DNA of 13,610 nucleotides from Candidatus Aenigmatarchaeota archaeon (lineage in GTDB: Archaea > Aenigmatarchaeota > Aenigmatarchaeia > GW2011-AR5 > JACRMX01), in the NCBI GenBank assembly GCA_016219485.1, contig JACRMX010000023.1, positions 1-13,610 on the forward strand, written 5' to 3'. Shown here piece after piece: positions 1 through 13,610 of the stretch. The position numbers and the translations under genes are program-made. The first letter of the stretch is position 1; every line of letters starts with the position of its first letter. A model generated the notes under the pieces. That model did not search any database and had not been told where the DNA came from. It saw only the letters and a program-made list of their open reading frames with translations.

Positions 1-747
1 CTCTGCCTTCCCTTTTATGTCATCCACTACATTCTTTGCAACCGAAAGTGCATACCTCATGTGTCTTGGGTCAACCTTTGCCATTGTCGAGTTCGCAACT
101 AAATTTATGGCTTCTGGAGAAATTGTATTGAAAAGTCCCATTATATTTGACAGCTTGCTGGAAAGCGCAAGCTTTATATCGTGCTCCCACTCTTCCTTGC
201 TGGCATAAAGCCTTTTGTCAAAAAGGTAAAGACCTCCGTCCAGGAATGATGTCATGCCATCGATGAACATGCTTAAGTTATTTTTATGGCTGCCTGGGAT
301 GTCTATGTGGATCAGCTTCTTTCCAGCATCTTCTAACTTTAATTGATCACCGAGCGGATTGCAGTAAGCTGTTATCCCGTGCATCCTCATAAAGGCGAAC
401 ATAAAGTCAGAAAGCAATTTGTCATCGCAATAAATAGCAACGCTATCATTTCCGGTAGGATTTAAGGAAGCAAAGATTTCAATTTCACCGTGCTCATTGA
501 TTAGTGCAGGCACCATGTTAAGCATATTATGCTTAATTACTATAGCCTTGTTCAGTCTGCTCAAATTTTTTGCTATATCAGGGTCTGGAGAGAAAACAGC
601 GATGCTTTTGTTGTCAGCTGTATCAATGTTATCGGATATTGTATAGTTATAGTATTCAGTAACATTTTCATCCCTAATACTGTCCCTTTTTATAACACGC
701 CCCACTGCAACTTTAAGTTCATCTACAGGTTTTGGGAACTTGTACAT
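1..747 (-). CDS. Hypothetical protein, N-terminal 249 codons only; the gene continues past the left edge of the window. Last gene seen in the regulator-gvpF-gvpG operon.
   Basis: I checked the minus-strand frame from the ATG at 745-747 (MYKFPKPVDELKVAVGRVIKRDSIRDENV...) codon by codon and found no stop down to position 1. It starts 10 nt after the stop of the upstream 135-aa gene. The ORF track lists only complete ORFs, which is why it is absent there. I recognise no family. Confidence 0.5.
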   Translation of the reverse strand, partial: MYKFPKPVDELKVAVGRVIKRDSIRDENVTEYYNYTISDNIDTADNKSIAVFSPDPDIAKNLSRLNKAIVIKHNMLNMVPALINEHGEIEIFASLNPTGNDSVAIYCDDKLLSDFMFAFMRMHGITAYCNPLGDQLKLEDAGKKLIHIDIPGSHKNNLSMFIDGMTSFLDGGLYLFDKRLYASKEEWEHDIKLALSSKLSNIMGLFNTISPEAINLVANSTMAKVDPRHMRYALSVAKNVVDDIKGKAE

Positions 748-757
748 AATCTTCACT

Positions 758-1165
758 TCACTCTCGGTGATCAACTAGCCCAAACCTCTTTCCATAAATT
801 CTCTTTCTTGTTGTTATCGCACCCGAGTATTTCGGCTTCTGAGGCACACTGGACCAGTTCGCAGGGTTTCTTAGCATTTTCGCATACTTAGGCGAGGGCA
901 TAAGCGATTGTGAAAGCGGGTTAAGATTCTTCTCTCTGCCTTCTTTTTTCTTAGCCATATTCCTTTCATTGGCCTGCACCCTCTCCTCATACCGCTGCCG
1001 CATATACATCAATTTCATTCTCACATTATCGCGCCATTTCTCAATTCTTCTTCTCATTTCAAGGTTGATTATTCTTCGCGGCTTTTCTTTTCTCCCTAAG
1101 CGAATCGAACTAAGGCTTCTCCTGCCCGTACTCCCCTTTCCTATGTCTGAAGACCTGTCAGCCAT
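758..1165 (-). CDS. Small, highly basic Arg/Lys-rich protein (135 aa) of unknown function, co-operonic with gvpF/gvpG.
   Basis: ATG at 1163-1165 is preceded by GAGGTGA (rc of 1169-1175), a strong SD-like site. It begins 9 nt after the gvpG stop. Composition is extreme R/K/E (e.g. RRRIEKWRDNVRMKLMYMRQRYEERVQANERNMAKKKEGREK). No family recognised. Confidence 0.5.
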   Translation of the reverse strand: MADRSSDIGKGSTGRRSLSSIRLGRKEKPRRIINLEMRRRIEKWRDNVRMKLMYMRQRYEERVQANERNMAKKKEGREKNLNPLSQSLMPSPKYAKMLRNPANWSSVPQKPKYSGAITTRKRIYGKRFGLVDHRE

Positions 1166-1174
1166 GCTATCACC

Positions 1175-1468
1175 TCATAACAATAGACCTGTGCTAAACT
1201 GGCCTATGTTAATATCATTTACCCTCTGTGCTATTCTTAATTTCTCTGCCAGCTCTGAAGTTCTCTTTTTATACTCTTCTCTTGGCAATTCTCCAAGTTC
1301 GTATAGTAATGCAATCTCCTTTATTTCGTTCTGTGTTTTTTTCAAAGGATATAATTCCTGCAAGGAATTTTTATGTACAGCACGAAAGCTCATCATGATA
1401 AGATTCGGCAGAGGTTCGAAACCAGCCAGGCTTAACGGTAATAAAAATACATCGTCTATGACAAACAT
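1175..1468 (-). CDS. gvpG: Gas vesicle protein GvpG. The ORF track extends to 1519 with a GTG; the likely true start is the ATG at 1466-1468.
   Basis: MFVIDDVFLLPL... at the N-terminus and ...LYELGELPREEYKKRTSELAEKL fit the GvpG family pattern. The ATG at 1466-1468 overlaps the gvpF TAA (TAATG) and is preceded by GGAGGAGAAGG (rc of 1471-1481). Position directly after gvpF is the canonical one. Confidence 0.65.
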   Translation of the reverse strand: MFVIDDVFLLPLSLAGFEPLPNLIMMSFRAVHKNSLQELYPLKKTQNEIKEIALLYELGELPREEYKKRTSELAEKLRIAQRVNDINIGQFSTGLLL

Positions 1469-2124
1469 TACCTTCTCCTCCCCATTATTCTTATATCCAC
1501 GAAATTGTACGGGGGCCACGGCCCGGAATATTTAATTTTACATTCTTTGTATTTCTGCCCTAGCCTTTCCACCTCTTCTGAAAATTTCTCTATGTCTCTT
1601 TTGTCAACCAAAAATGATTTGTTGTAAAGCAACCTGTCAGAAAACAGCTCGCCTCTTCGAACTTCGACGACAATCCTGTCCAAAACTGCAAAATCCTCTT
1701 CTTTTACAGCTTGGGTCATTTCTTGTGGAATACCCGTGTCTAAAGGAATGTCTTCTTTTACATCTTTACCTTCTTTTGGGGCAACAACCTTCACACCGAG
1801 CTCTATTTTATTGTCTATTAGTCTGAGGCTCCTTTTTAGAATGGGATAAACATTCCTCATTGTGTTTACCAGAATGCCTTTTGTTCTGAATACCATCCCA
1901 AATGCTACTGGCAAAACTGTATGCTCTTTCAGAAGACATAGCTCAACATCCTTGTGCCTTGCCACGTTGTCATCAGTGGGCTCGTAATCTTTTAGCGGAA
2001 CCTCGCTGGCTATGGCGCATAAATCATGATACGGCAGAGCATAAGGCCTGCCGCCTTCTATACCCTCTTCAGGAAACCCGTTTAGTTTGGTTCTGTTTAT
2101 TATGCAGTAGAGATATTCAGCCAT
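1468..2124 (-). CDS. gvpF: Gas vesicle protein GvpF (GvpF/GvpL family).
   Basis: N-terminal EYLYCII (YxYG-like) and C-terminal FSDRLLYNKSFLVD...YSGPWPPYNFVDIRIMG closely match haloarchaeal GvpF (FTDRLIINKSYLVD...YTGPWPPYNFVDIHIG). The ATG at 2122-2124 lies 2 nt after the stop of the upstream regulator gene. Confidence 0.9.
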   Translation of the reverse strand: MAEYLYCIINRTKLNGFPEEGIEGGRPYALPYHDLCAIASEVPLKDYEPTDDNVARHKDVELCLLKEHTVLPVAFGMVFRTKGILVNTMRNVYPILKRSLRLIDNKIELGVKVVAPKEGKDVKEDIPLDTGIPQEMTQAVKEEDFAVLDRIVVEVRRGELFSDRLLYNKSFLVDKRDIEKFSEEVERLGQKYKECKIKYSGPWPPYNFVDIRIMGRRR

Positions 2125-2126
2125 GG

Positions 2127-3143
2127 CTATTCCTTCTTTTCATAGAGCAAAGATATGCTTTCCACGCCCTGTATGTTCGAGCGTAGGAACATGTTCAGGA
2201 AATTCTTTGCCTGCATGTGATCGTTTAGCATACGGGTTATCCGTTCTCTATCAATAACTGTGTATATCCTTACCTTCTCGAATCCGAGCTTGCTCTGTAG
2301 AAGACCTTCCTTTTCAAGCTTATGTAGCAGCGGGTATAGCGTGCCTGAAGAAAGCAAAACATGAAAGTTATCGTATATTCTCTTTTTTATATTAATTCCG
2401 CATATAGGCTCTTTGGAAACCATAGCAAGAATAATCGTCTTCAATTCGTCTTTCACAAATTTTTCAAAAAAGCCGTTGGTGGTATTTGCTAAAGAGGGTC
2501 CTGTGTCTAGCATATTATTGTCCTTGATTATAATGGCCTTAGAGTGCTTCTCTACTATTCTCCTACAATCGTCCTTGCCTAATTTGGTGATGTCGTACAT
2601 GCAGAGTACAGCGTCGCAATGCAATTTGCTGAGAACTTTTTCCCTCTCTTCGTAATTGAGAAAGCTTTCAGCATTATTAAACCCTATCTTTTTCCTTTTG
2701 TGTACAACCTCATGTTTTAGCGTTTTCGTCGGCTTTGGCTCCAGTGACCTGACCTGTATAGGAGAAGTGCAATCTATTATTATTGTGCCAAAGTCGCCAT
2801 TTCCACTCTTCTTCCCTTCGCCCCCCCCCCTCTCCAACCAGAAAAATTTATTAATGTTCTCTATGGAAGGGTTGATTATTGTCAGTTTTCCAACTTTATA
2901 GTCTATTAGGATTTCCCTTACCTTTTCTAAATTCTCGTCTGTAATCAAAAGGGCATTAGTATTTCTGCCGGACAAGAACTGGACGTAAATTTTATATTTG
3001 TCCGTTTCTGGTGTATATAAATATAAAATATGCCCATTCCCGGACAAGAGATGATTCGTAGATTCGTTAATATTGTCAAAGGTTACTAAATGCTCATTGC
3101 ACAACTTATTTTCTGATGCCCACATATTTTCCAATGCCCACAC
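2127..3143 (-). CDS. Fused transcriptional regulator: N-terminal MEDS-like sensory domain plus C-terminal PadR-type winged helix. Start is either GTG 3143 or ATG 3125.
   Basis: C-terminus has the PadR signature GTLYPLLHKLEKEGLL. The N-terminal ~200 aa has MEDS-like motifs (HILYLY...E, DAVLCMYDITKL...H). The stop is 2 nt before the gvpF ATG, so translation looks coupled. It contains a G10 tract encoding Gly-Gly-Gly. Confidence 0.6.
   Translation of the reverse strand: MWALENMWASENKLCNEHLVTFDNINESTNHLLSGNGHILYLYTPETDKYKIYVQFLSGRNTNALLITDENLEKVREILIDYKVGKLTIINPSIENINKFFWLERGGGEGKKSGNGDFGTIIIDCTSPIQVRSLEPKPTKTLKHEVVHKRKKIGFNNAESFLNYEEREKVLSKLHCDAVLCMYDITKLGKDDCRRIVEKHSKAIIIKDNNMLDTGPSLANTTNGFFEKFVKDELKTIILAMVSKEPICGINIKKRIYDNFHVLLSSGTLYPLLHKLEKEGLLQSKLGFEKVRIYTVIDRERITRMLNDHMQAKNFLNMFLRSNIQGVESISLLYEKKE
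2821..2830. repeat. C10/G10 homopolymeric tract inside the regulator CDS.
   Basis: cccccccccc at 2821-2830. The minus strand reads AGG GGG GGG GGC, giving R-G-G-G in the ORF (WLERGGGEGKK). This is very unusual in the AT-rich sequence here. Confidence 0.95.
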
Positions 3144-3429
3144 CCCATGTCTTGCAATTCATTAACAAAATATTGCAGAGAGAATATCGAAATTTGACTC
3201 GAAAAAATGATTCATATATTTAATTGTGAAAGATGGTATATATAGTTTTTCCAGACGCATTTCCTGTGTCGAACATCGATACGAAATACGACTCTGCATA
3301 TCAGCTTAATAAGTGAACCAACAATTCGTGAAAAGATTTCCTGCGGTTTTTAAGGGACAAAATACCTAATGTAAAGAGTTTACCTGTTGGCTTTTATTAC
3401 TAGCTAAGGCAAATGCCGGCTAGAAGAAA

Positions 3430-3714
3430 TTATTTTTCTTCTTCAGAATGCGTATAAGGTACGCCGCGTCTTCTTGTATTAAGTCTTCTATAGCTTAGAA
3501 TTTTATTGCCACCCTCAGTGATAACAACCTCGTATTCTCCTATCAAATCTTGGCTGCTTGGAACAGCTCTTCTTTCCAGCATCTCAATATTAATCTGCCA
3601 ATTTTTTCCAACCTGCTTGGCGCTTATAATACCGAGCGATTCTTTCTTCAGCGTATCTTTCATCAGGCTGCTTGCCATTTCATTAATTTTAACAAGTTCG
3701 TTCATAAAAATCAC
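3430..3714 (-). CDS. Small hypothetical protein (91-94 aa) ending the gvpA-gvpN operon. Start is GTG 3714 overlapping the upstream stop, or ATG 3705.
   Basis: ORF MIFMNELVKINEMASSLMKDTLKK...YEVVITEGGNKILSYRRLNTRRRGVPY. Start-stop overlap or 5-nt spacing with the paralog gene. No family recognised. Confidence 0.45.
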   Translation of the reverse strand: MIFMNELVKINEMASSLMKDTLKKESLGIISAKQVGKNWQINIEMLERRAVPSSQDLIGEYEVVITEGGNKILSYRRLNTRRRGVPYTHSEEEK

Positions 3715-4058
3715 GGAATGTAAACATAGTCGTTTTCGAGTCTTACTTGTGCGCCAATCCAGTCTTTCAGCGACCCCTTCACATTATAGCTTTCCAGATT
3801 CTCTACATTGAAATAATATTTTAGGAATTGCGCCAGCTTATTCCTTCTGAACTGACCAGCCTTGCTAAAAGCCTTGGGGTCAAAGCTACCATCAGCTTTT
3901 AGGCATGTAAAAAACATCTCTTTTATCTCCTTGTCAGCAGTTTTGACTTTTATGATAATAACATCAGTATCATTTCCAATTCTCTTAGGCTTCTTCTTCC
4001 ATAGGTCGTAGACGCTGTATAGCTTTGCCTCTTTGATAAGTCCGTGGTTTGTTATCAT
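3711..4058 (-). CDS. Hypothetical protein, paralog 2 of a tandem pair (115 aa).
   Basis: Clearly similar to the 4144-4500 product: both share a KLY(D/S)VYDLWKKKP...DTD.I..KVK....EIKE.FFTCLK.DG.F. K..SK....RNKLA.FL.YYF...E.YN.K....DW.G..V pattern. ATG at 4056-4058. Confidence 0.5.
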   Translation of the reverse strand: MITNHGLIKEAKLYSVYDLWKKKPKRIGNDTDVIIIKVKTADKEIKEMFFTCLKADGSFDPKAFSKAGQFRRNKLAQFLKYYFNVENLESYNVKGSLKDWIGAQVRLENDYVYIP

Positions 4059-4143
4059 GAATTAAATTCGGCCAAAAGGTTTATAAAACTTCTTTTTACA
4101 TATCGGAATTCGACATACATAAAAAAACTTGTTGCTATGGGGA

Positions 4144-4500
4144 TTATTGCTTTTTAACAGTAAGGGGAATAAATATTCTATCGTCCTTTATTTGTACACG
4201 TCGACCTTTCCAGTCCTTTATATTTTCCTTTAGATTATACTCCTCTGGGTTTGTGTCAAAATAGTACATGAGAAATCGTGCAAGCTTATTTCTCATGGCG
4301 GCACTTCTTTTGCTTGGGGTTTTTGTTGAAAAGGTTCCATCCCCTTTCAGACAGGTGAAGAATGTTTCTTTTATTTCTTTGTTTCCGCTCTTCACTTTTA
4401 CTACTATAGCGTCTGTGTCATTGAAAGCGACCTGGCGTGGTTTCTTCTTCCATAAGTCGTATACATCATATAATTTAGCATCAACAATAACAGCATCCAT
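4144..4500 (-). CDS. Hypothetical protein, paralog 1 of a tandem pair. The ORF track starts at TTG 4512; the likely start is ATG 4498-4500.
   Basis: Paralogous to the 3711-4058 product (see that entry). The ATG at 4498-4500 is preceded by GGGTG (rc of 4506-4510), which is SD-like. No family recognised. Confidence 0.5.
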   Translation of the reverse strand: MDAVIVDAKLYDVYDLWKKKPRQVAFNDTDAIVVKVKSGNKEIKETFFTCLKGDGTFSTKTPSKRSAAMRNKLARFLMYYFDTNPEEYNLKENIKDWKGRRVQIKDDRIFIPLTVKKQ

Positions 4501-4545
4501 CAAAACACCCAATTTCTTAATATCTTAATAGCTGAAAACATTACA

Positions 4546-4950
4546 TTATATGTAAACGACCTCAGGTCTTGGTATGCTGGGCGAGAATGGCATCCTCCTG
4601 CCACCCCATTTCCATGATCTCTTATCCCATCTCACCAATTTCTTATCAAACCCAGAAAGTTTGGCATTCCAGTTTGAAGCGTAGATGACCTCCCTTCTTC
4701 TCCACCGGCTCTGCCATTTGAGTGCTCTCTTTGCCATTCTTGCTTCTGATCTTTCTGCCCTTCTATCCCACTTCAAGGCAAGCTTATTTGCACGCAAATC
4801 CCATTTTATACTCCAAGAAGAAACCTTTGCCTTGTAGCCTGCTTCATATTTTACTCTTTTAGCTAGCCATTTTGTGCTTATCCTGGCATTCTTGGCATCC
4901 TGCTTTAAATGCCTCATTTCAATTTTTCTTGCTAATCTATTTTGCAGCAT
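4546..4950 (-). CDS. Very basic Trp/Lys/Arg-rich repetitive protein (134 aa) immediately downstream of gvpN.
   Basis: The ATG at 4948-4950 is 2 nt after the gvpN TAA (TAATTATG). The sequence has repeated W-x3-W / KW(D/Q) elements: WSIKWDLRANKLALKWDRRAE...ALKWQSRWRRRE...LVRWDKRSWKWGGRR. No family recognised. Confidence 0.5.
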   Translation of the reverse strand: MLQNRLARKIEMRHLKQDAKNARISTKWLAKRVKYEAGYKAKVSSWSIKWDLRANKLALKWDRRAERSEARMAKRALKWQSRWRRREVIYASNWNAKLSGFDKKLVRWDKRSWKWGGRRMPFSPSIPRPEVVYI

Positions 4951-4952
4951 AA

Positions 4953-5978
4953 TTATAACATTTTTTGAATTCGCTCCTTTATCAATAATCTTTTTTTGGC
5001 TACATCATCAAAACCTAAGAATTTTGATGACATGGCATCAACACATACTTCTTCGAGATAATCTTTACCAAAACCGTTAGTTGCCTGTAAGGCCTGCCCG
5101 ATCATTATTGCTATCCTTGTTCCAGGTTTTTCTACACCGCCTAAAATGTTTCGCAGTTCCCTTACTACATCGACAATCTTCTCAGCCCGCGCTTTCGGCA
5201 GGCCCGAATGAGCTTGAACTATCTTTACCTCTGTATCCCTGTTGTAATAATCCATATGTATTGTTGCAATCCTGTCTAGCAATGCATCCTGCGGCTTGTG
5301 GACGCCTGCGTACTCCATATTATTTGAAGTCAGCAACAATGAGAAATCCGGGTGAACTTTGATGTACCTATCTTCGCCGAACTTAGTTGGCAGTTCCAAT
5401 ACACCCTCTTCCAGAACAGAAAGCAGGATGTTGTTTGCCTCAGGCCTGCTCCTTGAGAATTCATTATAAATTAATGTATAGCCATACTGGCACGCAAGTG
5501 TCAGAGGATTAGAAACCCATCTTGCTTCCATCGTATCTTTATCCTTGAAGACATTGTGAATAAATTTATCCCTTATGGTGGTCATCTCTATCTTTGAATA
5601 GCCGCCGATCAGGTTAGTGGTATTAATGGCTTCATCACCATTAACCCATACAGAAGGCTTTCCGAGCAAATTGGCAGCCTGCAAGGCTAGTGCAGTTTTC
5701 CCGCATCCTGTAGGACCAATAATGTGTACAGGATAGCCAGTCTTTAGCCATAGGAGGATTTTGCCTATATACCTTTTGACTTCGTCTGTCTCAATAAAAT
5801 TTTTCGGCACTGGTGACAAGAATTTTGCTTCGATATCTTCCCTTACTGTAGCAAGCTGGACTTCTCTGACATCTTCCTGTTCGCGTTGTCTAGTAAGTAT
5901 TGTAAGCTTTTTCTCAGCTATGGCTTGGTGAACAGCTCCACCTCTAACTTTTCGCGGATGTTCTGGAACATATTTCAT
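4953..5978 (-). CDS. gvpN: Gas vesicle protein GvpN (AAA+ ATPase).
   Basis: Walker A GPTGCGKT, overall AAA+ layout, ~340 aa, and a position downstream of gvpA. The ATG at 5976-5978 is preceded by AAGAGGA (rc of 5983-5989). Confidence 0.88.
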   Translation of the reverse strand: MKYVPEHPRKVRGGAVHQAIAEKKLTILTRQREQEDVREVQLATVREDIEAKFLSPVPKNFIETDEVKRYIGKILLWLKTGYPVHIIGPTGCGKTALALQAANLLGKPSVWVNGDEAINTTNLIGGYSKIEMTTIRDKFIHNVFKDKDTMEARWVSNPLTLACQYGYTLIYNEFSRSRPEANNILLSVLEEGVLELPTKFGEDRYIKVHPDFSLLLTSNNMEYAGVHKPQDALLDRIATIHMDYYNRDTEVKIVQAHSGLPKARAEKIVDVVRELRNILGGVEKPGTRIAIMIGQALQATNGFGKDYLEEVCVDAMSSKFLGFDDVAKKRLLIKERIQKML

Positions 5979-6125
5979 ATCAGAATCCTCTTATTTTATT
6001 GTAACTTTACCCCTACATCTTTGCTTCTAGATGTGTTCATCCGGCTTCCTACCATTGTATCGTTAGTTGGATACCCTGCGAGCCTAGTGGCGTTGAACAT
6101 GCTCATAAAAAATAAAAGCAGGCGA

Positions 6126-6497
6126 TTAGCCCCAAAAATTCTTTATGTACTCTTGCAGTGTCGTGGCTTGATAGTTCTGGATTTTCGTTGCGAAATTGTT
6201 AATCTTTGTCACAACCTTTCTTGAACCTGCGTTTATCTCTCTTACTGCGGCTTTATTTACCTTTTCCTGTTCTTTTATTGTCTGCTGAAATAATGCGATT
6301 TTGTTGTGCACTTCCTGCACGCCTTTGTACATATTTGCAGCTGCTGCAGCATTCTCTTTTTCCTGCGCTCGTATATCATCCACTAACTTGCTCACGCTTG
6401 TCGCCATAACTCGAACACCCGCTTGCATTGTCTTATAGGTTTCTCTAATCGCTGCCTGTTTTGCTCTAACGCTCCCTGCTACAAGTGGATCAGCCAT
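6126..6497 (-). CDS. Helical Ala/Lys/Gln-rich protein (123 aa) with ~33-residue periodicity, between gvpA and gvpN. Candidate GvpC/GvpO-like accessory protein.
   Basis: The ATG at 6495-6497 is preceded by AGGTGA and lies 13 nt after the gvpA stop. Segments KQAAIRETYKTMQAGVRVMATSVSK and KAAVREINAGSRKVVTKINNFATK are 66 residues apart (2 x 33), with a weaker middle copy (AAAAANMYKGVQEV...). The family assignment is uncertain. Confidence 0.55.
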   Translation of the reverse strand: MADPLVAGSVRAKQAAIRETYKTMQAGVRVMATSVSKLVDDIRAQEKENAAAAANMYKGVQEVHNKIALFQQTIKEQEKVNKAAVREINAGSRKVVTKINNFATKIQNYQATTLQEYIKNFWG

Positions 6498-6510
6498 TTA
6501 ATCACCTGCC

Positions 6511-6735
6511 TTAAGCTTTAGCAGGTGCTGCGATGGCCGCTTGCTCAACCTTTGTTATCTCTTCTGCGTAGTGCAGGTATGTGTCAACGCTTGCCACTAC
6601 AACTCTCGCTTCTATAGTGACTATCTCTATTCCCACCAAGTTTACTCTTGCCCATGCATCTACAACCAAACCCTTGTCAAGGATTCGGTCGATAACTTCT
6701 GCAAGACTTGCTGTATCTGGCGCTTGATTTACCAT
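6511..6735 (-). CDS. gvpA: Gas vesicle structural protein GvpA.
   Basis: [45 protein letters not shown] is the hallmark GvpA core. 74 aa. The ATG at 6733-6735 is preceded by GAGGTG. Confidence 0.95.
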
Positions 6736-6760
6736 ATTTTCTACACCTCATATTTTTATT

Positions 6761-6768
6761 TTATATAA
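6761..6768 (-). promoter_or_regulatory. TATA-like box (TTATATAA) about 26-33 nt upstream of the gvpA ATG.
   Basis: AT-rich TATA-like element at the expected archaeal distance upstream of gvpA. It implies a very short leader. Confidence 0.3.
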
Positions 6769-6896
6769 GTTGCCCCCAATTCCTTCTGCAATTAAATGAT
6801 GCGTCTGCATCACTTTATTTAATGCAGTATAAAATTGCACAACCCTTTTAATTATATTGCAATCCGTTCAATATAAACATAAGCAAAAAATCGATG

Positions 6897-6919
6897 TCCG
6901 TATCGGATTTCGATACGCA
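6897..6919. promoter_or_regulatory. Inverted repeat CGTATCG-gattt-CGATACG in the gvpA upstream region.
   Basis: Seen directly. A related CGATACGaaATACGA element lies at 3276-3291, upstream of the regulator gene. Confidence 0.3.
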
Positions 6920-7192
6920 TAATCTGTGAGTTCTCTGTAAGCATTCCTATGGAAAGTTTATGCGATCTTTAGACTCTTTTGTCTTGAACGTTTTGCCTCT
7001 TCATCTCATTAAGATAAAGTATAAAAATCTGCCAGATACTTTATCTTATGCATCATGCTCAAAGACCGAAGGTCTTTGGCACACCGCGGAAGCAAAGCTT
7101 CTGCGAGTGAATTCCTCAGAAAATTCATTCCAAAAGAATTTGCTTGTCTGGCATATCCTATCTTGATAGCCTCTCTAGAACCCTGTCTGAAA

Positions 7193-7227
7193 ATTTTAAA
7201 AATATATCATCCCAAATATTTTTAAAA
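7193..7227. repeat. Perfect 13-bp AT-rich inverted repeat ATTTTAAAAATAT / ATATTTTTAAAAT with a 9-nt spacer.
   Basis: Seen directly: attttaaaaatat-atcatccca-aatatttttaaaat. Confidence 0.6.
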
Positions 7228-7330
7228 TCATATTCTCACAGCAGTTGAATCTTAACGTCAGTTGTTTGATTAACAGAACCGTTCCTGATGCATCCTCACA
7301 CATCGCATAAGAACACTGATAAAACTTTTT

Positions 7331-7465
7331 CCCGCCAGTAACGCCGTTGTTCATTGATAGCCGAACTGACGCAACGCCGAATGACGAGCGTTCGATTGAC
7401 TCGCTCGTCAGTTTTTCGATGCGCCTTTTCTGAATGGCATTGCTCTAACGGTTGAGGGCTGGCGG
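7331..7465. other. GC-rich island with nested inverted repeats in the long gvpA-upstream intergenic region. Candidate structured RNA or a remnant of one.
   Basis: cccgccag at 7331-7338 pairs with ctggcggg at 7458-7465, an 8-bp closing stem spanning ~135 nt. An internal hairpin gacgagcg-ttcgattgact-cgctcgtc (7393-7419) is followed by a T5 run. Local GC is well above the surrounding sequence. No convincing ORF; the 93-aa minus ORF 7296-7577 looks spurious. Confidence 0.25.
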
Positions 7466-7518
7466 GCAAGTGTATTGAGCATAAAATCTTTTTAAAGGAA
7501 ATAGTATACATATGAGTA

Positions 7519-7893
7519 GTGATACTAGTGGCAAAAAATAGGTATGATGTTTTTAGACAGGTTTTAATGATTTTCATAATATTAATATCACTATTTCAGT
7601 TATACTCAGCAATATTTCTAATTACCAGGGAGGCAGTTCGTTATATTGTATTTGCTGTATTTTCTGCTTCTACATTTATAATTGGCATGATATCAATTTA
7701 TTCAATTTTAAGTAGAGAGAAATGGGGAATTTATGCTACATCGGTGTTCTTTATGGTCACAGCAGCTTATTTTGCTCTGAGTCTAGTATATATGCCTTAT
7801 TATCTCATGCCTGTGACAAATATTCTGGGAATTATATTTTTATTATGCCTCTGGCTTGCTGTATTGGTAAATAAAAATAAGCTGCAGAAATGA
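7519..7893 (+). CDS. Small hydrophobic membrane protein (3-4 predicted TM helices). Start is GTG 7519 or ATG 7567.
   Basis: Almost entirely hydrophobic ORF: IFIILISLFQLYSAIFLI...ILGIIFLLCLWLAVLV. No family recognised. Confidence 0.4.
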   Translation: MILVAKNRYDVFRQVLMIFIILISLFQLYSAIFLITREAVRYIVFAVFSASTFIIGMISIYSILSREKWGIYATSVFFMVTAAYFALSLVYMPYYLMPVTNILGIIFLLCLWLAVLVNKNKLQK

Positions 7894-7901
7894 TGACCTG
7901 A

Positions 7902-8378
7902 TTATTTTTCTGCAGAAAATTTCTCTGCAAGCAATGCTGCATTTTCCTTCAGCCTTTTTATTATATCCTTTATTTTGATCTTGGATGCTTTTCTCATCTC
8001 CGGGACGAGGTTTTTGTGATAAAATTCCCCGAATGTCTCGTTGATTATACCTTCGCTGTTTCTGAAAGCAACCCTTAGAAACCCGTACATAGTAATAACC
8101 AGCGGCTTCTCAGCGTTGTTGTCGCCGTCTATTGAAACTTCCACGACAATCTTTGTGTGCTTGTCTATTATTTTAATTATAGAAAATTTAATTTTGATTA
8201 TGTTTTCACGTCCTCCGGCAAGGACCTCATTTTCCTTCTCCACCATTCTTCCGAGTGTCTTTGCCATGTCCATAAATTCAAGCGCAAAAACATATGGGCT
8301 ATTCACCATAACCGAGATGCTCTCATCTGCAAATGTTTCTGTAATTATGCGCATAGCGTCAGCCTCTGCATTCTTCAC
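7902..8378 (-). CDS. Hypothetical protein (150-158 aa). Alternative start at ATG 8352-8354 would avoid the overlap with the upstream gene.
   Basis: ORF MKNAEADAMRIITETFADESISVMVNSPYVFALEF... with a mixed charged/hydrophobic character. No family recognised. Confidence 0.45.
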   Translation of the reverse strand: MKNAEADAMRIITETFADESISVMVNSPYVFALEFMDMAKTLGRMVEKENEVLAGGRENIIKIKFSIIKIIDKHTKIVVEVSIDGDNNAEKPLVITMYGFLRVAFRNSEGIINETFGEFYHKNLVPEMRKASKIKIKDIIKRLKENAALLAEKFSAEK

Positions 8379-8901
8379 ATAGCCATGAGCCTGATACCTT
8401 TTTCAGGTTATCGGAATAGTTTCCGCATGATTCGCACTGGTCAAAGAGAACAGGCTCTTCTTTGCGGTCAAGACTGCCTATTTTCATTTTTTCGAGCATA
8501 ATTTCAAAAAGAGCCGGCTCTACCCTCAGGATATCATTGTTCGTAATTATTCCAATGAGCTTTTTGTTTTTAAAAACAAGCAGCTTTTCTATGCCTTTCT
8601 GCGTAAGCAGGCGGGCTGCTTCTTCCAGTGTTTTGTTTGGCGAGATCGTAACCGGATTTTTTGTCATTATGTCGGAAACCTTTTTTCCTTTTCTGCTGGC
8701 AACATGCTTGTAAACTATATCCGAAGGCGTGAGTATGCCAGCGACTCCTTTTTTCCCGACAACGACAACTGAGCCTATTTTGTTTTTCTTCAGCATCTCA
8801 GCTGCTTTTTTGATGCTATCGCCAGGAGAAATGGTTTTTACGCTCCTGTTCATAACTTCCTTGACGAGTGCGCTGTACCTCATGATAGATATATGGTACA
8901 T
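8359..8901 (-). CDS. CBS-domain pair protein with a C-terminal C4 zinc ribbon.
   Basis: Two CBS-like units (VMNRSVKTISPGDSIKKAAEMLKKNKIGSVVVV..GILTPSDIV and DIMTKNPVTISPNKTLEEAARLLTQKGIEKLLVF..IGIITNNDIL), followed by CESCGN...CEEC. Confidence 0.7.
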   Translation of the reverse strand: MYHISIMRYSALVKEVMNRSVKTISPGDSIKKAAEMLKKNKIGSVVVVGKKGVAGILTPSDIVYKHVASRKGKKVSDIMTKNPVTISPNKTLEEAARLLTQKGIEKLLVFKNKKLIGIITNNDILRVEPALFEIMLEKMKIGSLDRKEEPVLFDQCESCGNYSDNLKKVSGSWLCEECRG

Positions 8902-8970
8902 GCCTAATAAAAAGATTAGTGAGGTTTGAAAAAACCTTATCCTTTAGTTTGCAGAGAATTGTATATATAT

Positions 8971-9087
8971 AAAAGTTAGAAACTTTTCCTTGTATTATTA
9001 GAAGGTTTTTTTCTGCTTTCCCCTCGATATTAGGGGGAAAGAGAAAAAACGTACGGGCATGGAAAAACAGTGCTTTTTCCAAATGTT
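8971..9087. repeat. Composite palindromic intergenic repeat, copy 1 (modules C-A-B), upstream of hjc.
   Basis: C is aaaagttagaaactttt (7-bp inverted repeat). A is gaaggtttttttctGCTTTCCCCTcgatattAGGGGGAAAGagaaaaaacgtacggg. B is CATGGAAAAAcagtgcTTTTTCCAAATGtt. It matches 9592-9735 almost base-for-base apart from an extra B module there. Confidence 0.7.
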
Positions 9088-9145
9088 ATCCTTTTTTATT
9101 ACAGAACCTAAAGGCTCTCCAATAAAAACTAACGCCTTCTATTAT

Positions 9146-9523
9146 ATGCTCATGGTAAAAACTTATAAGAAAGGCTATACAGCTGAAAGGGAAATTGTTC
9201 ATACCCTGTATAAAATGGGGTATGCTGTTATACGGACCCCGCGTTCAGGCCGCATATGCCTGCCAAGCCCTGATATTATTGCTGCAAAACATGGTAAAAT
9301 TATTGTTCTCGAATGCAAGTCACGCAAGCGCGCTTTTAACGTGCCTGCAGAGCAGGTGGAAGAGCTGAGAGAATGGGAAAAAAGAGCAGGAGCAACAGCT
9401 TATATCGCATGGAAGGTTGCACACAAAGGGTGGTTCTTTTTCCCCATGTCTGTTGTAGAAGAAAACAGGGGAAATATTGGAAAAAGAATGCCGCAAAAAG
9501 CCATAGGCATTGACGATATCTGA
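9146..9523 (+). CDS. hjc: Holliday junction resolvase Hjc (archaeal PD-(D/E)xK nuclease). The ORF track start at 9059 lies inside the repeat and is probably not used.
   Basis: KKGYTAEREIVHTLYKMGYAVIRTPRSG...PDIIAAKHGKIIVLECKSRK matches the Hjc core (ERE..., PD, E.K). About 125 aa, typical Hjc size. ATG at 9146 or 9152. Confidence 0.8.
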   Translation: MLMVKTYKKGYTAEREIVHTLYKMGYAVIRTPRSGRICLPSPDIIAAKHGKIIVLECKSRKRAFNVPAEQVEELREWEKRAGATAYIAWKVAHKGWFFFPMSVVEENRGNIGKRMPQKAIGIDDI

Positions 9524-9591
9524 AACAGATAAATCAAAAATAAGAGTTTTTGAAAACCCCTTATCCCGCAGAGAATTGAATAGATATGAGA

Positions 9592-9735
9592 AAAAGTCAG
9601 AAACTTTTTCTATACATGGAAAAGGCTGTGCCTTTTCCAATGTTTTGCCAGAAGGTTTTTTTCTCTTTCCCCTCAATATTAGGGGGAAAGAGAAAAAAAC
9701 CGTATGGGATTGGAAAAACGTGGTTTTTCAAAGTC
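9592..9735. repeat. Composite palindromic intergenic repeat, copy 2 (modules C-B-A-B'), downstream of hjc.
   Basis: aaaagtcagaaactttttc (C). Then ttctataCATGGAAAAGGctgtgCCTTTTCCAATGtt (B, 9609-9644). Then gaaggtttttttctctttcccctcaatattagggggaaagagaaaaaaaccgtatggg (A, 9651-9706). Then a degenerate B: ttGGAAAAACgtgGTTTTTCaa. Confidence 0.7.
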
Positions 9736-9755
9736 CTCAAGCTTTGTATGTAATG

Positions 9756-10553
9756 TCAGAAAACTGCCTCAAGCCAGGCGCCAATCAATATCAGCGTCTC
9801 TGCAAGAGCAAGATAGATGAGCGCGTCTTTTACAACAGCGTTGAATGCTATTGAGCCGTATTTTTCCCGCAAAAGCCCTATTGAAAGTATTCCGCCAGCC
9901 AGGCCTGCAAGAAAATAGCCGGCGATCTCCGGCACGCCATGAAGCGCTATTGCGCCCAGGCCCAGCGGAACGCCATACAGGTATGCCTGCATGGTATGCA
10001 TGCCCTCTCCTATAAGCGACCTTATGTTAAAGCCAAGATAAACTGCTATGATAGAAGCGTTCCATGCCAGTATAAATACAGCGCCTGCACCGAACATGAT
10101 TGAAAGTATAAAGCTGAGTATCATGGTCTGCGAATTATTTATAAAATATTTCAGGAAAAGGTAGCTGCTGTCGACCGTGGTCCCTGATACCATGTTTTTA
10201 AGCGTGTTTGTCTGCAGGGAAAATACATTCATATCCGGGGCAAAAACAAAAATAAATGCAAGCGAGAATATTACCCCGAGAAAAAATGCTGAATAAACGT
10301 ATATCGCGCAGATGTGCCGGGTAAATATATTACCGCTCGGGTTTTTGTCCCTTCGCTCTTCTATGACGAATATGCGCTGGAAAAATGGCACAAAAAGTAT
10401 TGTTATAAACGTTATTGTGAGCAGAGATGCTTCTGAGGGAAATATGCGCCATGCAAAAAATGATGCTATCAGAGAATACACGAAAGCAACAACAAATATG
10501 CGCCATGGATCCTTTTCTGCGGATTTCGGGTTTATCAGTGATTCAAGAACCAT
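9756..10553 (-). CDS. Integral membrane protein, SpoIIM/DUF95-like.
   Basis: Multi-pass hydrophobic protein with a C-terminal HGVPEIAGYFLAGLAGG segment resembling the conserved HG(I/V)xE(I/L)PA motif of the SpoIIM/DUF95 family. Family call is tentative. Confidence 0.5.
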   Translation of the reverse strand: MVLESLINPKSAEKDPWRIFVVAFVYSLIASFFAWRIFPSEASLLTITFITILFVPFFQRIFVIEERRDKNPSGNIFTRHICAIYVYSAFFLGVIFSLAFIFVFAPDMNVFSLQTNTLKNMVSGTTVDSSYLFLKYFINNSQTMILSFILSIMFGAGAVFILAWNASIIAVYLGFNIRSLIGEGMHTMQAYLYGVPLGLGAIALHGVPEIAGYFLAGLAGGILSIGLLREKYGSIAFNAVVKDALIYLALAETLILIGAWLEAVF

Positions 10554-10679
10554 GATATCTATTTATTTTCCGGTTTAAATATAGTTTTAAAAAACATGCC
10601 CTTAAATTTATTTTATAGCAATACAAGGAAATAAACAGTATATTACTTCCTTGTTTGCTATATATTAGAAAAGCAATGC

Positions 10680-10718
10680 TTTTCTATACATGGAAATTCC
10701 TTCAGAATTTCCAATGTG
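10680..10718. repeat. Module B repeat, copy 3, in the divergent promoter region upstream of the HMGCS operon.
   Basis: ttttctataCATGGAAATTccttcagaAATTTCCAATGtg. It shares the ttttctatacatgg...ccaatgt frame with 9607-9644 but carries a different, still complementary, stem. Confidence 0.65.
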
Positions 10719-10768
10719 TGAAACAAGTTGTATAATGTCCAAATTCTTTACTTGTTTCACTATAAAAG
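10718..10768 (+). promoter_or_regulatory. Perfect 11-bp inverted repeat (GTGAAACAAGT-N21-ACTTGTTTCAC) abutting a TATAAAAG box about 40 nt upstream of the HMGCS ATG. Candidate operator plus promoter.
   Basis: Arms at 10718-10728 and 10750-10760 are exact reverse complements. tataaaag at 10761-10768 is a TATA-like box. Confidence 0.4.
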
Positions 10769-10803
10769 CCTTTTCGGTTTATTGATTTCATCAGGTTGTT
10801 TAT

Positions 10804-11847
10804 ATGGCTGGTATAGTAGGATATGGCGCATACGTGCCGCGGCTTAGGATAACGGTCGACGAAATAGCGCGCATATGGGGCCAGGACCCTGAGAGCATAA
10901 AAAGCGGGCTTGGCGTGAGTGAGAAAAGCGTGCCTGAGCATGATGAAGACACTGTTACCATAAGTGTTGAAGCTGCAAAAAATGCTATTGCGCGCGCAGC
11001 TATTGACCCAAAGGACATAGGAGCAGTATACGTGGGCTCTGAGAGCCATCCGTACACAGTAAAGCCTTCTGGCACAATAGTTGTTGATAGCCTAGGCATC
11101 GGGCCTGATGTTTCTGTTGCTGACACAGAGTTTGCATGCAGGGCTGGAACAACAAACATATTCATATGCATGGGGCTTGTAATGTCTGGCATGATAAAAT
11201 ATGGCCTTGCTATTGGCGCAGACACATCGCAGGCCAGGCCTGGTGATGCCCTTGAATACACAGCTGCTGCAGGCGGAGCTGCATTTGTAATAGGAAAGGA
11301 CAACGTGGCTGTAAAAATAAAAGACGCATATTCATTTGTAACAGACACTTCTGATTTCTACAGAAAGGAAGGCGAGATATATCCGACACATGCAGGAAGG
11401 TTCACAGGTGAGCCTGCTTATTTCAGGCATGTTATTGCTGCAACAAAAACCGTGCTTGAAAAAAACAGTCTTAAGCCGCAGGATTTTGACTTCTGCGTAT
11501 TCCACATGCCCAATGGAAAATTTCCCGTAAGAGTTGCAAAGATGCTTGGCTTTGAAATGAAACAGCTGGAAGATTCGCTTGTGGTTAAAAAAATAGGAAA
11601 TACCTATTCAGGCTCAAGCCTGCTTGGTCTTTCGTCTGTTTTGGATAAAGCAAAGCCTGACCAGCGCATACTTATTACATCATATGGCTCAGGCGCAGGC
11701 TCGGACTCATTTATAATGGAAACAACAGACCTCATAGAAGAAATTCAGAACAGGGCGCCAAAAACAGACAGCTACATAGATGCTAAAAACAAAGAATACA
11801 TTGACTATGGTACATATGTAAAGATACGAAAAAAATTGAAGATGTGA
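10804..11847 (+). CDS. Archaeal-type hydroxymethylglutaryl-CoA synthase.
   Basis: N-terminal GIVGYGAYVPRLRI, active-site EFACRAGT and 347 aa fit archaeal HMGCS. Position is in an operon with thiolase and DUF35. Confidence 0.88.
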   Translation: MAGIVGYGAYVPRLRITVDEIARIWGQDPESIKSGLGVSEKSVPEHDEDTVTISVEAAKNAIARAAIDPKDIGAVYVGSESHPYTVKPSGTIVVDSLGIGPDVSVADTEFACRAGTTNIFICMGLVMSGMIKYGLAIGADTSQARPGDALEYTAAAGGAAFVIGKDNVAVKIKDAYSFVTDTSDFYRKEGEIYPTHAGRFTGEPAYFRHVIAATKTVLEKNSLKPQDFDFCVFHMPNGKFPVRVAKMLGFEMKQLEDSLVVKKIGNTYSGSSLLGLSSVLDKAKPDQRILITSYGSGAGSDSFIMETTDLIEEIQNRAPKTDSYIDAKNKEYIDYGTYVKIRKKLKM

Positions 11848-11867
11848 TATTAGATGAGTGTGATGCT

Positions 11868-13007
11868 ATGAAAAAGATCGCGATCATTGGCGGTTACCAG
11901 ACTGCATTCGGCGAGCTGTGGGAAAAATCACTCGGAGACTTAATAGAAGAGGCAGGCATAGGCGCGATCAGCGATTCCGGAATAGAGAAAAATGATGTTA
12001 ACTGCCTCTATCTTGGAAACATGGCAGCAGGCCGTTTTGTAGGGCAGGAGCATGTGGCTGCATTTGCTGCTGACTGCCTCTCTCTTAAGGTGCCTGCTAT
12101 ACGGTGCGAGGCTGCCTGCGCATCAGGTGCTCTTGCTTTTTCACAGGCGTGCATAAAAATATTGAGTGGAAAGGCTGAAACTGCGCTTGTTATCGGCGCA
12201 GAGAAAATGACTGATGTTATAGGTTCAGAGGCTGTAACAACGCTGATGGGAGCAGGGGACAGTGAATGGGAATCGAGCATAGGGCTGACATTTGCAGGGC
12301 TCTATGCACTAATGGCACGCGCGCATATGCACAGGTATAAAACAACAAGAGAGCAGCTTGCAATGGTCGCTGTTAATAACCATAAAAACGGGCAGAAAAA
12401 TGAAAAGGCGCAGTTCCGCTTTCCTATCACAGTGGATGATGTAATAAAATCTGCTGTCATAGCAGACCCCCTGCGGCTTCTTGACTGTTCTCCGATAACA
12501 GACGGAGCAGCATCAGTGATAGTTGCGAGCGAGGATTATGTGCAAAAGAAAAAAATAGAAAATCCTGTCTGGGTTCTTGGCAGCAGCCATGGAAGCGACA
12601 GCATAGGCCTCCACGACCGCGCTGACATAACAGAGATGGCTTCAGTTAAAAAAGCTGCAAAGGATGTTTTCGATGAATCTGGATTGAAACACAAGGACAT
12701 TGATGTTGTTGAACTGCATGACTGTTTTACTATAAATGAAATAATAGGCCTGGAAAGCATGGGATTCTGCGAGAAAGGAAAAGGCGGAACATTTGTGGAA
12801 GAGTCTGAATTACCAACAAACACAACAGGCGGGCTGAAATCATGCGGCCATCCTGTAGGAGCCACAGGCGTCAGGCAGATAATAGATATTTACAGGCAGC
12901 TCAAAGGCGTATCTATAAATCAGGTTAAAGGCGCAGAGCACGGGCTTGCTCTGAATGTTGGCGGCAGCGGAGCAACAGCCATTATACATATTCTTGGAGT
13001 TGAATAA
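11868..13007 (+). CDS. Archaeal acetyl-CoA C-acetyltransferase (thiolase). The ORF track starts at GTG 11844; the likely start is ATG 11868 (MKKIAIIGG).
   Basis: IAIIGGYQTAFGE, catalytic CEAACASGALAF, C-terminal GGLKSCGHPVGATG. The HMGCS TGA overlaps the upstream GTG frame. Confidence 0.88.
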   Translation: MKKIAIIGGYQTAFGELWEKSLGDLIEEAGIGAISDSGIEKNDVNCLYLGNMAAGRFVGQEHVAAFAADCLSLKVPAIRCEAACASGALAFSQACIKILSGKAETALVIGAEKMTDVIGSEAVTTLMGAGDSEWESSIGLTFAGLYALMARAHMHRYKTTREQLAMVAVNNHKNGQKNEKAQFRFPITVDDVIKSAVIADPLRLLDCSPITDGAASVIVASEDYVQKKKIENPVWVLGSSHGSDSIGLHDRADITEMASVKKAAKDVFDESGLKHKDIDVVELHDCFTINEIIGLESMGFCEKGKGGTFVEESELPTNTTGGLKSCGHPVGATGVRQIIDIYRQLKGVSINQVKGAEHGLALNVGGSGATAIIHILGVE

Positions 13008-13008
13008 A

Positions 13009-13383
13009 ATGGAGTCAGTTCCGATTAAATGGAGAAGGCAGAGGCACAGGTACATGCTTACCGGCTCAAAATGCAGCTGCGGCGGTGTTTTTTATCCGCC
13101 CAGAAATTTATGCAGCTGTGGAAAAAATACAGAAGATGCTGTGCTCAGCGGTGAGGGAAAAATAATCTCATACACAGAAATACATACTGCGCCAGAAGGA
13201 TTTGAAGCAGAGACGCCATACACAATAGCACTCATAAAACTAAAAGACGGACCTGTTATACCAGCACATATTGTTGGCAGAGGCGCTGAAATAGGGAAAA
13301 AAGTGGCCCCTGTTTTCAGGAAAATGGGAGAAGGCGGCAAAAAAGGCGTTATTGCCTACACAACAAAATTTGTCGTCGTGTAA
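13009..13383 (+). CDS. DUF35 OB-fold/zinc-ribbon protein, the scaffold partner of archaeal thiolase/HMGCS. The ORF track starts at 12955; the likely start is ATG 13009 (MESVPIKW).
   Basis: CSCGGVFYPPRNLCSCG zinc ribbon followed by an OB-fold-like C-terminal half. The ATG is 1 nt after the thiolase TAA, with a GGAG upstream. Confidence 0.82.
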   Translation: MESVPIKWRRQRHRYMLTGSKCSCGGVFYPPRNLCSCGKNTEDAVLSGEGKIISYTEIHTAPEGFEAETPYTIALIKLKDGPVIPAHIVGRGAEIGKKVAPVFRKMGEGGKKGVIAYTTKFVVV

Positions 13384-13490
13384 TCACCTGGTTTTATCAT
13401 CGGTCTATCATTATATGGTTTTATTTGGTGATTATCAATTAACTGCCCCTAGCACATTAAATTAATTTCTTAAACATTAGAATTGCTTTG

Positions 13491-13575
13491 CAATTCTATG
13501 CATGGGAAAAATAAAGTTTTTCCCAATGTGAAAATATTTTCTGTTTTCCCCTACTTGAGCGAGGGAAAACGAAAA
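13491..13575. repeat. Palindromic intergenic repeat, copy 4 (modules B-A), downstream of DUF35.
   Basis: ttctatgCATGGGAAAAAtaaagTTTTTCCCAATGtg (B), then tctGTTTTCCCCtacttgagcgAGGGAAAACgaaaa (an A-like hairpin). Confidence 0.6.
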
Positions 13576-13610
13576 TGTTATGAGCCACAAGAAAGTCACT
13601 TCGTGACAAA

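Follow-up and report, generated by a model that had tools for sequence, protein, structure and literature searches.

The stretch of DNA analyzed here (hereafter, the window) consists of positions 1 to 13,610, the full length, of contig JACRMX010000023.1, from an Aenigmarchaeota metagenome-assembled genome (MAG; assembly GCA_016219485.1, Candidatus Aenigmatarchaeota archaeon). On its reverse strand, between the gas-vesicle genes gvpO and gvpF, lies a gene for a transcriptional regulator (positions 2127-3143; 338 codons from a GTG at position 3143), and the coding strand of this gene carries an uninterrupted run of ten G's. The original prediction, made from the sequence alone, had described this run as a potential slipped-strand on/off switch or a hotspot for assembly errors, and these two possibilities are weighed here using the regulator gene itself, its orthologues and the gas-vesicle (gvp) cluster in which it is embedded.

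The regulator gene and its G10 tract

On the plus strand, the tract reads CCCCCCCCCC at positions 2821-2830 (C10, corresponding to G10 on the coding strand of the regulator gene). It is the sole C or G run of six or more nucleotides (nt) in the 13,610 bases, in which the longest A/T runs are of 7 nt. Under a model of independent and identically distributed bases with 21% C and 19% G, the expected number of runs of at least ten is 0.002 for C and 0.0008 for G, or about 0.003 for both together, so that the run is indeed unexpected for this base composition, as had been claimed. The tract occupies nt 314-323 of the gene and falls in codons 105-108 (AGG GGG GGG GGC), encoding R-G-G-G and hence the three glycines originally read from it. 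It therefore constitutes a homopolymer longer than about 8 nt that lies within a reading frame and exceeds what composition would provide.

The open reading frame (ORF) at 2127-3143 is open on both sides of the tract, and both of its halves match homologues in one frame; the G10 of the window is therefore the in-frame state, and this assembly contains no false frameshift. In silico, slipping the tract of the window gene to G9 yields a product of 120 amino acids (aa) and slipping it to G11 a product of 144 aa, with G8 and G12 behaving alike, and the PadR domain is lost in all cases, in agreement with the predicted truncation of the regulator upstream of that domain by a one-base slip. All of these products are also missing the final strands of the N-terminal domain. 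A change of 3 nt, in turn, alters only the number of glycines, in a segment predicted to be disordered. The prediction of a false-frameshift hotspot hence does not apply to the window, although it retains some force for other assemblies, in which individual G9 or G12 calls may be errors.

The regulator is a member of the PadR family. The NCBI annotation describes a product of 335 aa starting at a TTG at position 3134 (MBI5347217.1, 'PadR family transcriptional regulator [Candidatus Aenigmarchaeota archaeon]'), and the C-terminal PadR-type winged-helix DNA-binding domain (positions 2172-2489, reverse strand; residues ~219-324) contains a match to PF03551 at residues 238-287 (nt 2283-2432) that scores 35.3 bits against a Pfam cut-off of 27. 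The same domain match is found in 11 of 11 homologues. Foldseek comparisons of the winged helix with the PadR structures 5zi8, 7wh4, 1xma and 3elk return a probability of 1.00 and template-modelling (TM) scores, normalized to the target, of 0.65-0.75. With regard to the translation start, the ATG at which the regulator begins in two groundwater loci described below (MGCGQLENVW...; position 7706 in L005) is also present in the window at 3146-3148, one base out of frame (CAA -> CA); judging from the translations, the window gene would therefore start at the GTG at 3143, at the TTG at 3134 used by NCBI or at an ATG at 3125.

The AlphaFold model of the regulator has a mean pLDDT (predicted local distance difference test) of 61, with values of 70-87 in the ordered parts, which include the PadR domain. 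In this model, residues ~17-206 (positions 2526-3095, reverse strand) form an N-terminal alpha/beta domain of alternating strands and helices, and residues 103-115, comprising the glycines encoded by the tract, form a low-confidence, putatively disordered loop between a helix (94-101) and a strand (118-124). The tract was thus misplaced in the original prediction, which had assigned it to an inter-domain linker rather than to a loop inside the N-terminal domain.

The family of this N-terminal domain was explored in several ways. A match to MEDS (PF14417) was rejected as an identity for the domain, given its E-value of 0.0069 and its 16.7 bits against a cut-off of 29.8; this sub-threshold match spans only the last 44 profile positions, and weak matches are found in 5 of 11 homologues. 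Foldseek produced no convincing named homologue of the N-terminal domain, with ORC/Cdc6-like matches at a TM score of ~0.2. A reading of the segment 'GGGEGKKS' as a Walker A motif was likewise rejected, as the segment departs from G-x4-GK[ST], shows no conservation among orthologues and lies in the disordered loop of the AlphaFold model instead of after the first strand. Finally, the Pfam scan returned only PadR and weak matches to E2F_TDP and MEDS, with no match to the GvpD or GvpE families.

Tract length and conservation in orthologous loci

Orthologous gvp loci were recovered by protein searches and exact look-ups, and the regulator gene occupies the same place in all of them. Together with the PF03551 match and the gvpO and gvpF flanks, this shared synteny substantiates the original identification of a gvp-linked PadR regulator. 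The tract lengths reported for these loci are those of the assembly consensus, and individual length calls may be wrong. As in the window, the tract is G10 and in frame in an NCBI MAG (L001) and the identical Logan contig (L002), in a further NCBI MAG (L003) and in an ENA groundwater locus (L035), which encodes the full 330-aa protein P0014. It is G9 in the Logan contig L004 (SRR22387954), where the gene is split into frames of 110 aa and 232 aa and G10 would restore the frame, and in the ENA groundwater locus L005, where the gene is also split and 8 or 11 G's would restore the frame in its context. In the NCBI MAG L034 the tract is G12 and leads into the same wrong frame as in L005, with a TGA two codons past the tract in the productive frame. 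Both in-frame (ON) lengths (window, L001, L003 and L035) and out-of-frame (OFF) lengths (L004, L005 and L034) are hence represented among these assemblies, and in each tract-bearing orthologous locus the tract is the only G/C run of at least 7 nt. An origin of the run as a poly-G read-end artefact of two-color sequencers was rejected, since independent assemblies, made in different projects, have the run embedded in frame and at homologous positions.

The closest comparison is provided by L035, L005 and L034. L035 and L005 differ by one mismatch and one 1-nt gap over 15,430 aligned nt, L035 and L034 by one mismatch and one gap over 12,084 nt, and L005 and L034 by one mismatch and one 3-nt gap over 11,685 nt. 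The three loci are therefore 99.96-99.99% identical over 12-15 kilobases, and all of their differences are confined to the tract and the 5 nt that follow it. These alignments indicate that L035, L005 and L034 represent one population in sister data sets, with one ON allele (L035, G10), two OFF alleles (L005, G9; L034, G12) and no other difference; at the level of assemblies, repeat length thus varies between identical flanks. As a control, about 20 proteins of the L001 gvp cluster were compared to five other loci, and only the regulator presented adjacent matches in different frames.

The tract is found at the same site in all tract-bearing orthologues, which span five diverged lineages with 76-92% nucleotide identity and synonymous divergence (dS) of 0.36-0.87 to the window. 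The codon register of the tract nevertheless differs between orthologues (RGGG, EGGG, AGGG and RRGG), whereas the glycine codons of the tract are all GGG in the five lineages. The surrounding region is the least conserved and most indel-rich part of the gene, with 43% invariant columns locally versus 61% gene-wide, and only 5% of 9-column windows in the orthologue alignment are invariant. These patterns indicate that it is the DNA run itself, and not a peptide motif, that has been kept.

The gene harboring the tract appears to be functional and under purifying selection. The ratio of nonsynonymous to synonymous divergence (dN/dS) of the regulator against its orthologues is 0.23-0.45, mostly above that of its gvp neighbors (0.04-0.36) and clearly below 1. 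In the OFF allele of L004, 216 codons past the tract are open, with dN/dS values (0.22-0.43) that are the same as those of ON-ON pairs. The possibility that OFF alleles are long-dead pseudogenes was consequently rejected for L004 and L005, but not for L034 or L006. The latter is a short JGI (Joint Genome Institute) contig in which the pure tract has been lost, being interrupted at ~160-190 (GCGGGGAAGGCGGAGGGG); it also presents a frameshift ~45 nt upstream of the tract, in an 8-nt C-rich insertion (C6-A-C4-A-C4) where one more C restores the frame.

Outside the tract-bearing orthologues, the tract loop is absent from P0005 (59% identity) and from distant homologues (34-40% identity). Further searches for relatives added no close orthologue within their respective scopes: a scan of genome contigs with a single regulator protein gave no match, a profile scan of genome contigs gave nothing beyond unrelated PadR proteins and homologues that were distant (32-35% identity), a pattern scan of viral contigs for the conserved tract flank gave no match, and a second N-terminal search with a profile yielded no further fragment.

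Candidate operators, a proposed switch and its rivals

A palindrome, YRTCG-N5-CGAYR, has 6 matches in the window (four sites, with matches on both strands), compared with an expectation of 0.34, and all of them lie in intergenic regions of the gvp cluster. A first copy (TGTCGAACATCGATA, 3267-3281), a putative operator, belongs to the promoter of the regulator gene, where a TATATATA box follows 22 nt downstream, and a degenerate copy (3185-3199) separates this TATA-like box from the start codon of the regulator. A second strong copy (TGTCGAATTCCGATA in coding-strand reading, 4101-4115) lies 12 nt upstream of a TTTATAAA box that precedes a 115-codon gene (3711-4058, reverse strand), and a third (TATCGAAATCCGATA, 6901-6915) is placed 23 nt upstream of a TTTATATT box and 166-180 nt upstream of the gvpA start. 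Palindrome sites recur in L001, L003, L004 and L005; the 4101-4115 site is in the same position in all four of these loci, and the site upstream of gvpA is identical in L001. The motif also accompanies distant homologues of the regulator in Iainarchaeum, Nanoarchaeota and Woesearchaeota MAGs. This co-occurrence suggests that the palindrome is probably the operator of the regulator.

The placement of these sites differs between types of locus. In Aenigmarchaeota-type loci, each strong palindrome ends 12-23 nt upstream of a TATA-like box, and this location just upstream of the boxes weakly suggests that the regulator is an activator, such that the OFF state would correspond to the absence of vesicles. 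In distant loci, the palindromes come after the TATA box and before the start codon, an arrangement expected for autorepression.

Taken together, these data make it reasonably probable that the tract acts as a biological slipped-strand ON/OFF switch, or contingency locus, in the gvp regulator. During replication, the run would gain or lose G's through slipped-strand mispairing. The gain or loss of one or two G's would shift the frame at about codon 108 and produce a stub of 120-144 aa devoid of three strands of the N-terminal domain and of the whole DNA-binding domain (OFF), whereas the gain or loss of three G's would add or remove one glycine in the disordered loop and leave the gene ON. If such switching is frequent and reversible, as we infer, the population would always contain cells with and without the regulator. 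Through its probable binding to the palindromes before gvpA, an internal gvp gene and its own gene, a switching regulator would set gas-vesicle production on or off in a heritable but reversible manner, giving rise to buoyancy-ON and buoyancy-OFF subpopulations. The occurrence of the tract in five lineages, with G9, G10 and G12 states that include in-frame and out-of-frame alleles, lends support to the slipped-strand switch of the original prediction, as do the three assemblies of one population that differ only at the tract and the fact that, among the gvp genes, only the regulator is split.

Several observations weigh against such a switch. The L035, L005 and L034 assemblies have only ~10x coverage, as read from their contig names, and the bases just after the tract differ (CGC vs C; TGC vs TGA) in a manner resembling miscalls that follow homopolymers. 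Since dS values of 0.4-0.9 are unsaturated, part of the conservation of the tract is due to shared ancestry. In L034, the TGA lies in the frame that would otherwise be productive, and in L006 the tract is no longer pure and the frameshift has another location; the gene may simply be in the process of being lost from some lineages. Moreover, full-text literature searches yielded no phase variation by simple sequence repeats (SSRs) in archaea.

The low coverage, together with the location of all differences among L035, L005 and L034 in the tract or the next 5 nt, a region subject to phasing errors, would fit a purely technical explanation, according to which the tract has one fixed in-frame length, the G9 and G12 states and the neighboring differences are Illumina or assembler errors, and there is no switching of consequence. 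The protein P0002 (G10), which is unchanged on four contigs, is also in line with this explanation. Nonetheless, we regard it as unlikely: the 3-nt difference between G9 and G12 would be a large one for an error in the consensus, L004 (Logan SRR22387954) independently supplies an OFF allele from a different lineage and data set, the tract has been retained while its flanks diverged, and a run of G9-G12 is physically prone to slippage in any replicating genome, as established for SSRs. We infer that these differences in length have a biological and not a technical origin.

Real slippage could also take place at an unselected weak point, with OFF alleles as the first step in the loss of a dispensable regulator from reduced DPANN genomes. 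The nonsense codon of L034, the interrupted tract and additional frameshift of L006, the dN/dS of the regulator relative to its neighbors and the presence of another small PadR gene where the cluster ends would all be compatible with such non-adaptive decay. We consider it somewhat less likely still than a technical origin, in view of the coexistence of ON and OFF alleles in one otherwise identical population and of the OFF allele of L004, which shows no relaxation downstream of the tract. Furthermore, a costly tract would be expected to gain synonymous interruptions (GGA, GGT or GGC), yet it consists of GGG throughout in five lineages, and distant DPANN gvp loci have G/C runs of their own adjoining regulator genes. 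It appears very improbable, lastly, that the tract operates at the level of expression, with RNA polymerase slippage or ribosomal frameshifting yielding full-length and truncated protein from any allele. Transcriptional slippage is possible at long homopolymers, and the out-of-frame alleles do keep an intact downstream frame; efficient slippage, however, is documented mainly at A/T runs, four lineages hold the run exactly in frame, and neither a stimulatory structure nor a canonical slippery heptamer was noticed, although no search aimed at them was made.

The G/C runs in distant DPANN gvp loci occur in several arrangements. A C16 run in L009 (36-51) and a C8 run in L011 (2747-2754) occupy homologous positions ahead of the regulator. 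In the Iainarchaeum locus L015, a G9 run (5935-5943) is located at the 5' end of the regulator, inside an insertion of ~88 nt after the ancestral TTG start; the short frame ends there at a TGA overlapping an ATG, and G10 would fuse both frames. In L017, a G14 run (9795-9808) makes up the final codons of a histidine kinase gene, and a gene encoding a receiver and winged-helix protein (a response regulator) follows 18 nt further on. The runs in these four loci hint at a recurrent strategy, and it is conceivable, if still tentative, that a stochastic and heritable buoyancy switch operates in DPANN archaea and that homopolymer switches in regulators have evolved independently and recurrently in their gas-vesicle loci.

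If the tract is a switch of this kind, ultra-small, genome-reduced archaea would be split into buoyant and non-buoyant cells by a mutational switch in one gene and not by signal transduction, with a bearing on their dispersal or their staying with hosts in stratified water and aquifers. The length of the tract in sequencing reads would then provide a concrete marker for existing metagenome time series. In roughly half of the assemblies, meanwhile, annotators will encounter the regulator split into two ORFs or labelled a 'pseudogene', which has already happened in L004, L005 and L034.

The gas-vesicle cluster and comparison with known systems

The gas-vesicle genes described below are all encoded on the reverse strand. 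The regulator is presumed to act on gvpA (6511-6735; Pfam Gas_vesicle, 1.4e-14), the gene for the major gas-vesicle protein. Between the putative TATA box of gvpA and its ribosome-binding site there is an inverted repeat (TTAAATAAAGTGATGC-AGAC-GCATCATTTAATT, 6787-6822, reverse strand), which may form a hairpin in the leader or serve as another binding site for a protein. The cluster further contains a gvpN-like gene encoding an AAA_5 ATPase identified in the Pfam scan (4953-5978), gvpO immediately upstream of the regulator gene (3430-3714; Pfam GvpO, 5.1e-15), and a gvpF/L gene (1468-2124; Pfam GvpL_GvpF, 9.2e-42) that starts 3 nt past the regulator stop codon and is in frame throughout. The latter is followed by a homologue of gvpG (1181-1468), detected by tblastn, whose product is 81% identical to the L001 protein matching Pfam GvpG. 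Two small genes between gvpN and gvpO (3711-4058, 115 codons, and 4144-4512) are mutual paralogues, with 50-57% identity in cross-matches with L001, and belong to no Pfam family. The right half of the window contains archaeal housekeeping genes, encoding Hjc and a trio of hydroxymethylglutaryl-CoA (HMG-CoA) synthase, thiolase and OB-fold (oligonucleotide/oligosaccharide-binding fold) proteins.

Complete gas-vesicle clusters of ~20 genes are present in Aenigmarchaeota, Iainarchaeum, Nanoarchaeota and Woesearchaeota MAGs (the window, L001, L003-L005, L034, L035 and L007-L019). Among orthologues, the length of GvpF differs (201 to 354 aa) owing to a central acidic insertion that is rich in repeats (DVKEDIPLDTGVPQEITQ-type) and preserves the frame. 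These differences, established by comparing the window gene (1468-2124) to those of L001 (8990-9817) and L005 (8702-9766), were rejected as additional frameshifts, since the insertions are in-frame acidic repeats. In the groundwater lineage, the far end of the gvp cluster harbors a second, stand-alone PadR gene of 127 aa (L005, 16619-16699; L034, 11605-11988; L035, 15349-15732). The contig of the window stops short of the position of this gene, which could back up or oppose the tract-bearing regulator.

Full-text literature searches found no treatment of gas-vesicle clusters or their regulation in DPANN archaea, and the DPANN genomics papers searched made no mention of gas vesicles. Gas-vesicle formation in Halobacterium salinarum is genetically unstable because of insertion elements, and is governed by the GvpE and GvpD regulators; on this subject, see the review by DasSarma and Arora that is cited in PMC9258230. 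The two systems share regulator genes embedded in the gvp cluster, and in H. salinarum the loss of gas vesicles is frequent and heritable. That loss, however, stems from the insertion of IS elements or from plasmid rearrangement and not from repeat slippage, and GvpE and GvpD are unrelated to the PadR-type protein described here. Within the PadR family (e.g. Rv3488, LmrR and Halobacterium RosR), the regulator conforms to the C-terminal winged helix with PadR signature and to the association with palindromic candidate operators. In contrast to classical PadR proteins of ~100-180 aa, it adds a 200-residue N-terminal alpha/beta domain of uncertain family.

As a general class, the poly-G tracts of Campylobacter and Neisseria provide the broader precedent for the proposed switch. 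To our knowledge, Campylobacter lacks mismatch repair. The poly-G phasome of Campylobacter comprises proven bacterial switches (PMC6321876), and the poly-G loci of Campylobacter jejuni and Neisseria resemble the tract reported here in presenting G8-G13 runs in reading frames, with ON and OFF frames and with length polymorphism between near-identical genomes (PMC6321876, PMC2192423). Those tracts are found mostly in genes for surface-structure enzymes, with many per genome and in host-associated bacteria, whereas here a single tract in 13.6 kilobases resides in the regulator of a groundwater- or sediment-type archaeon.

Among documented systems, the one most similar to the tract is found in the bacterium Klebsiella, where the regulator gene rmpA carries a poly-G run that is a proven switch (bioRxiv 10.1101/2025.09.12.675794). 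In both cases, the poly-G run is situated inside the coding sequence of a transcription regulator and is conserved across the lineage; a change in its length frameshifts the regulator, and would in the archaeal case, as it does for rmpA, turn the whole downstream phenotype ON or OFF. The rmpA gene is bacterial and plasmid-borne and encodes a LuxR-type protein controlling capsule, in contrast to the PadR-type regulator of an archaeal gas-vesicle cluster, and its reversibility and phenotype have been shown experimentally, whereas the archaeal tract is known from comparative sequence analysis of an uncultured organism. The mechanism is hence already known in kind, and what is unusual is its setting: a random, bacterial-style on/off switch has scarcely been described in archaea, and the candidate reported here lies in a gas-vesicle regulator of a DPANN archaeon from a free-living groundwater community.

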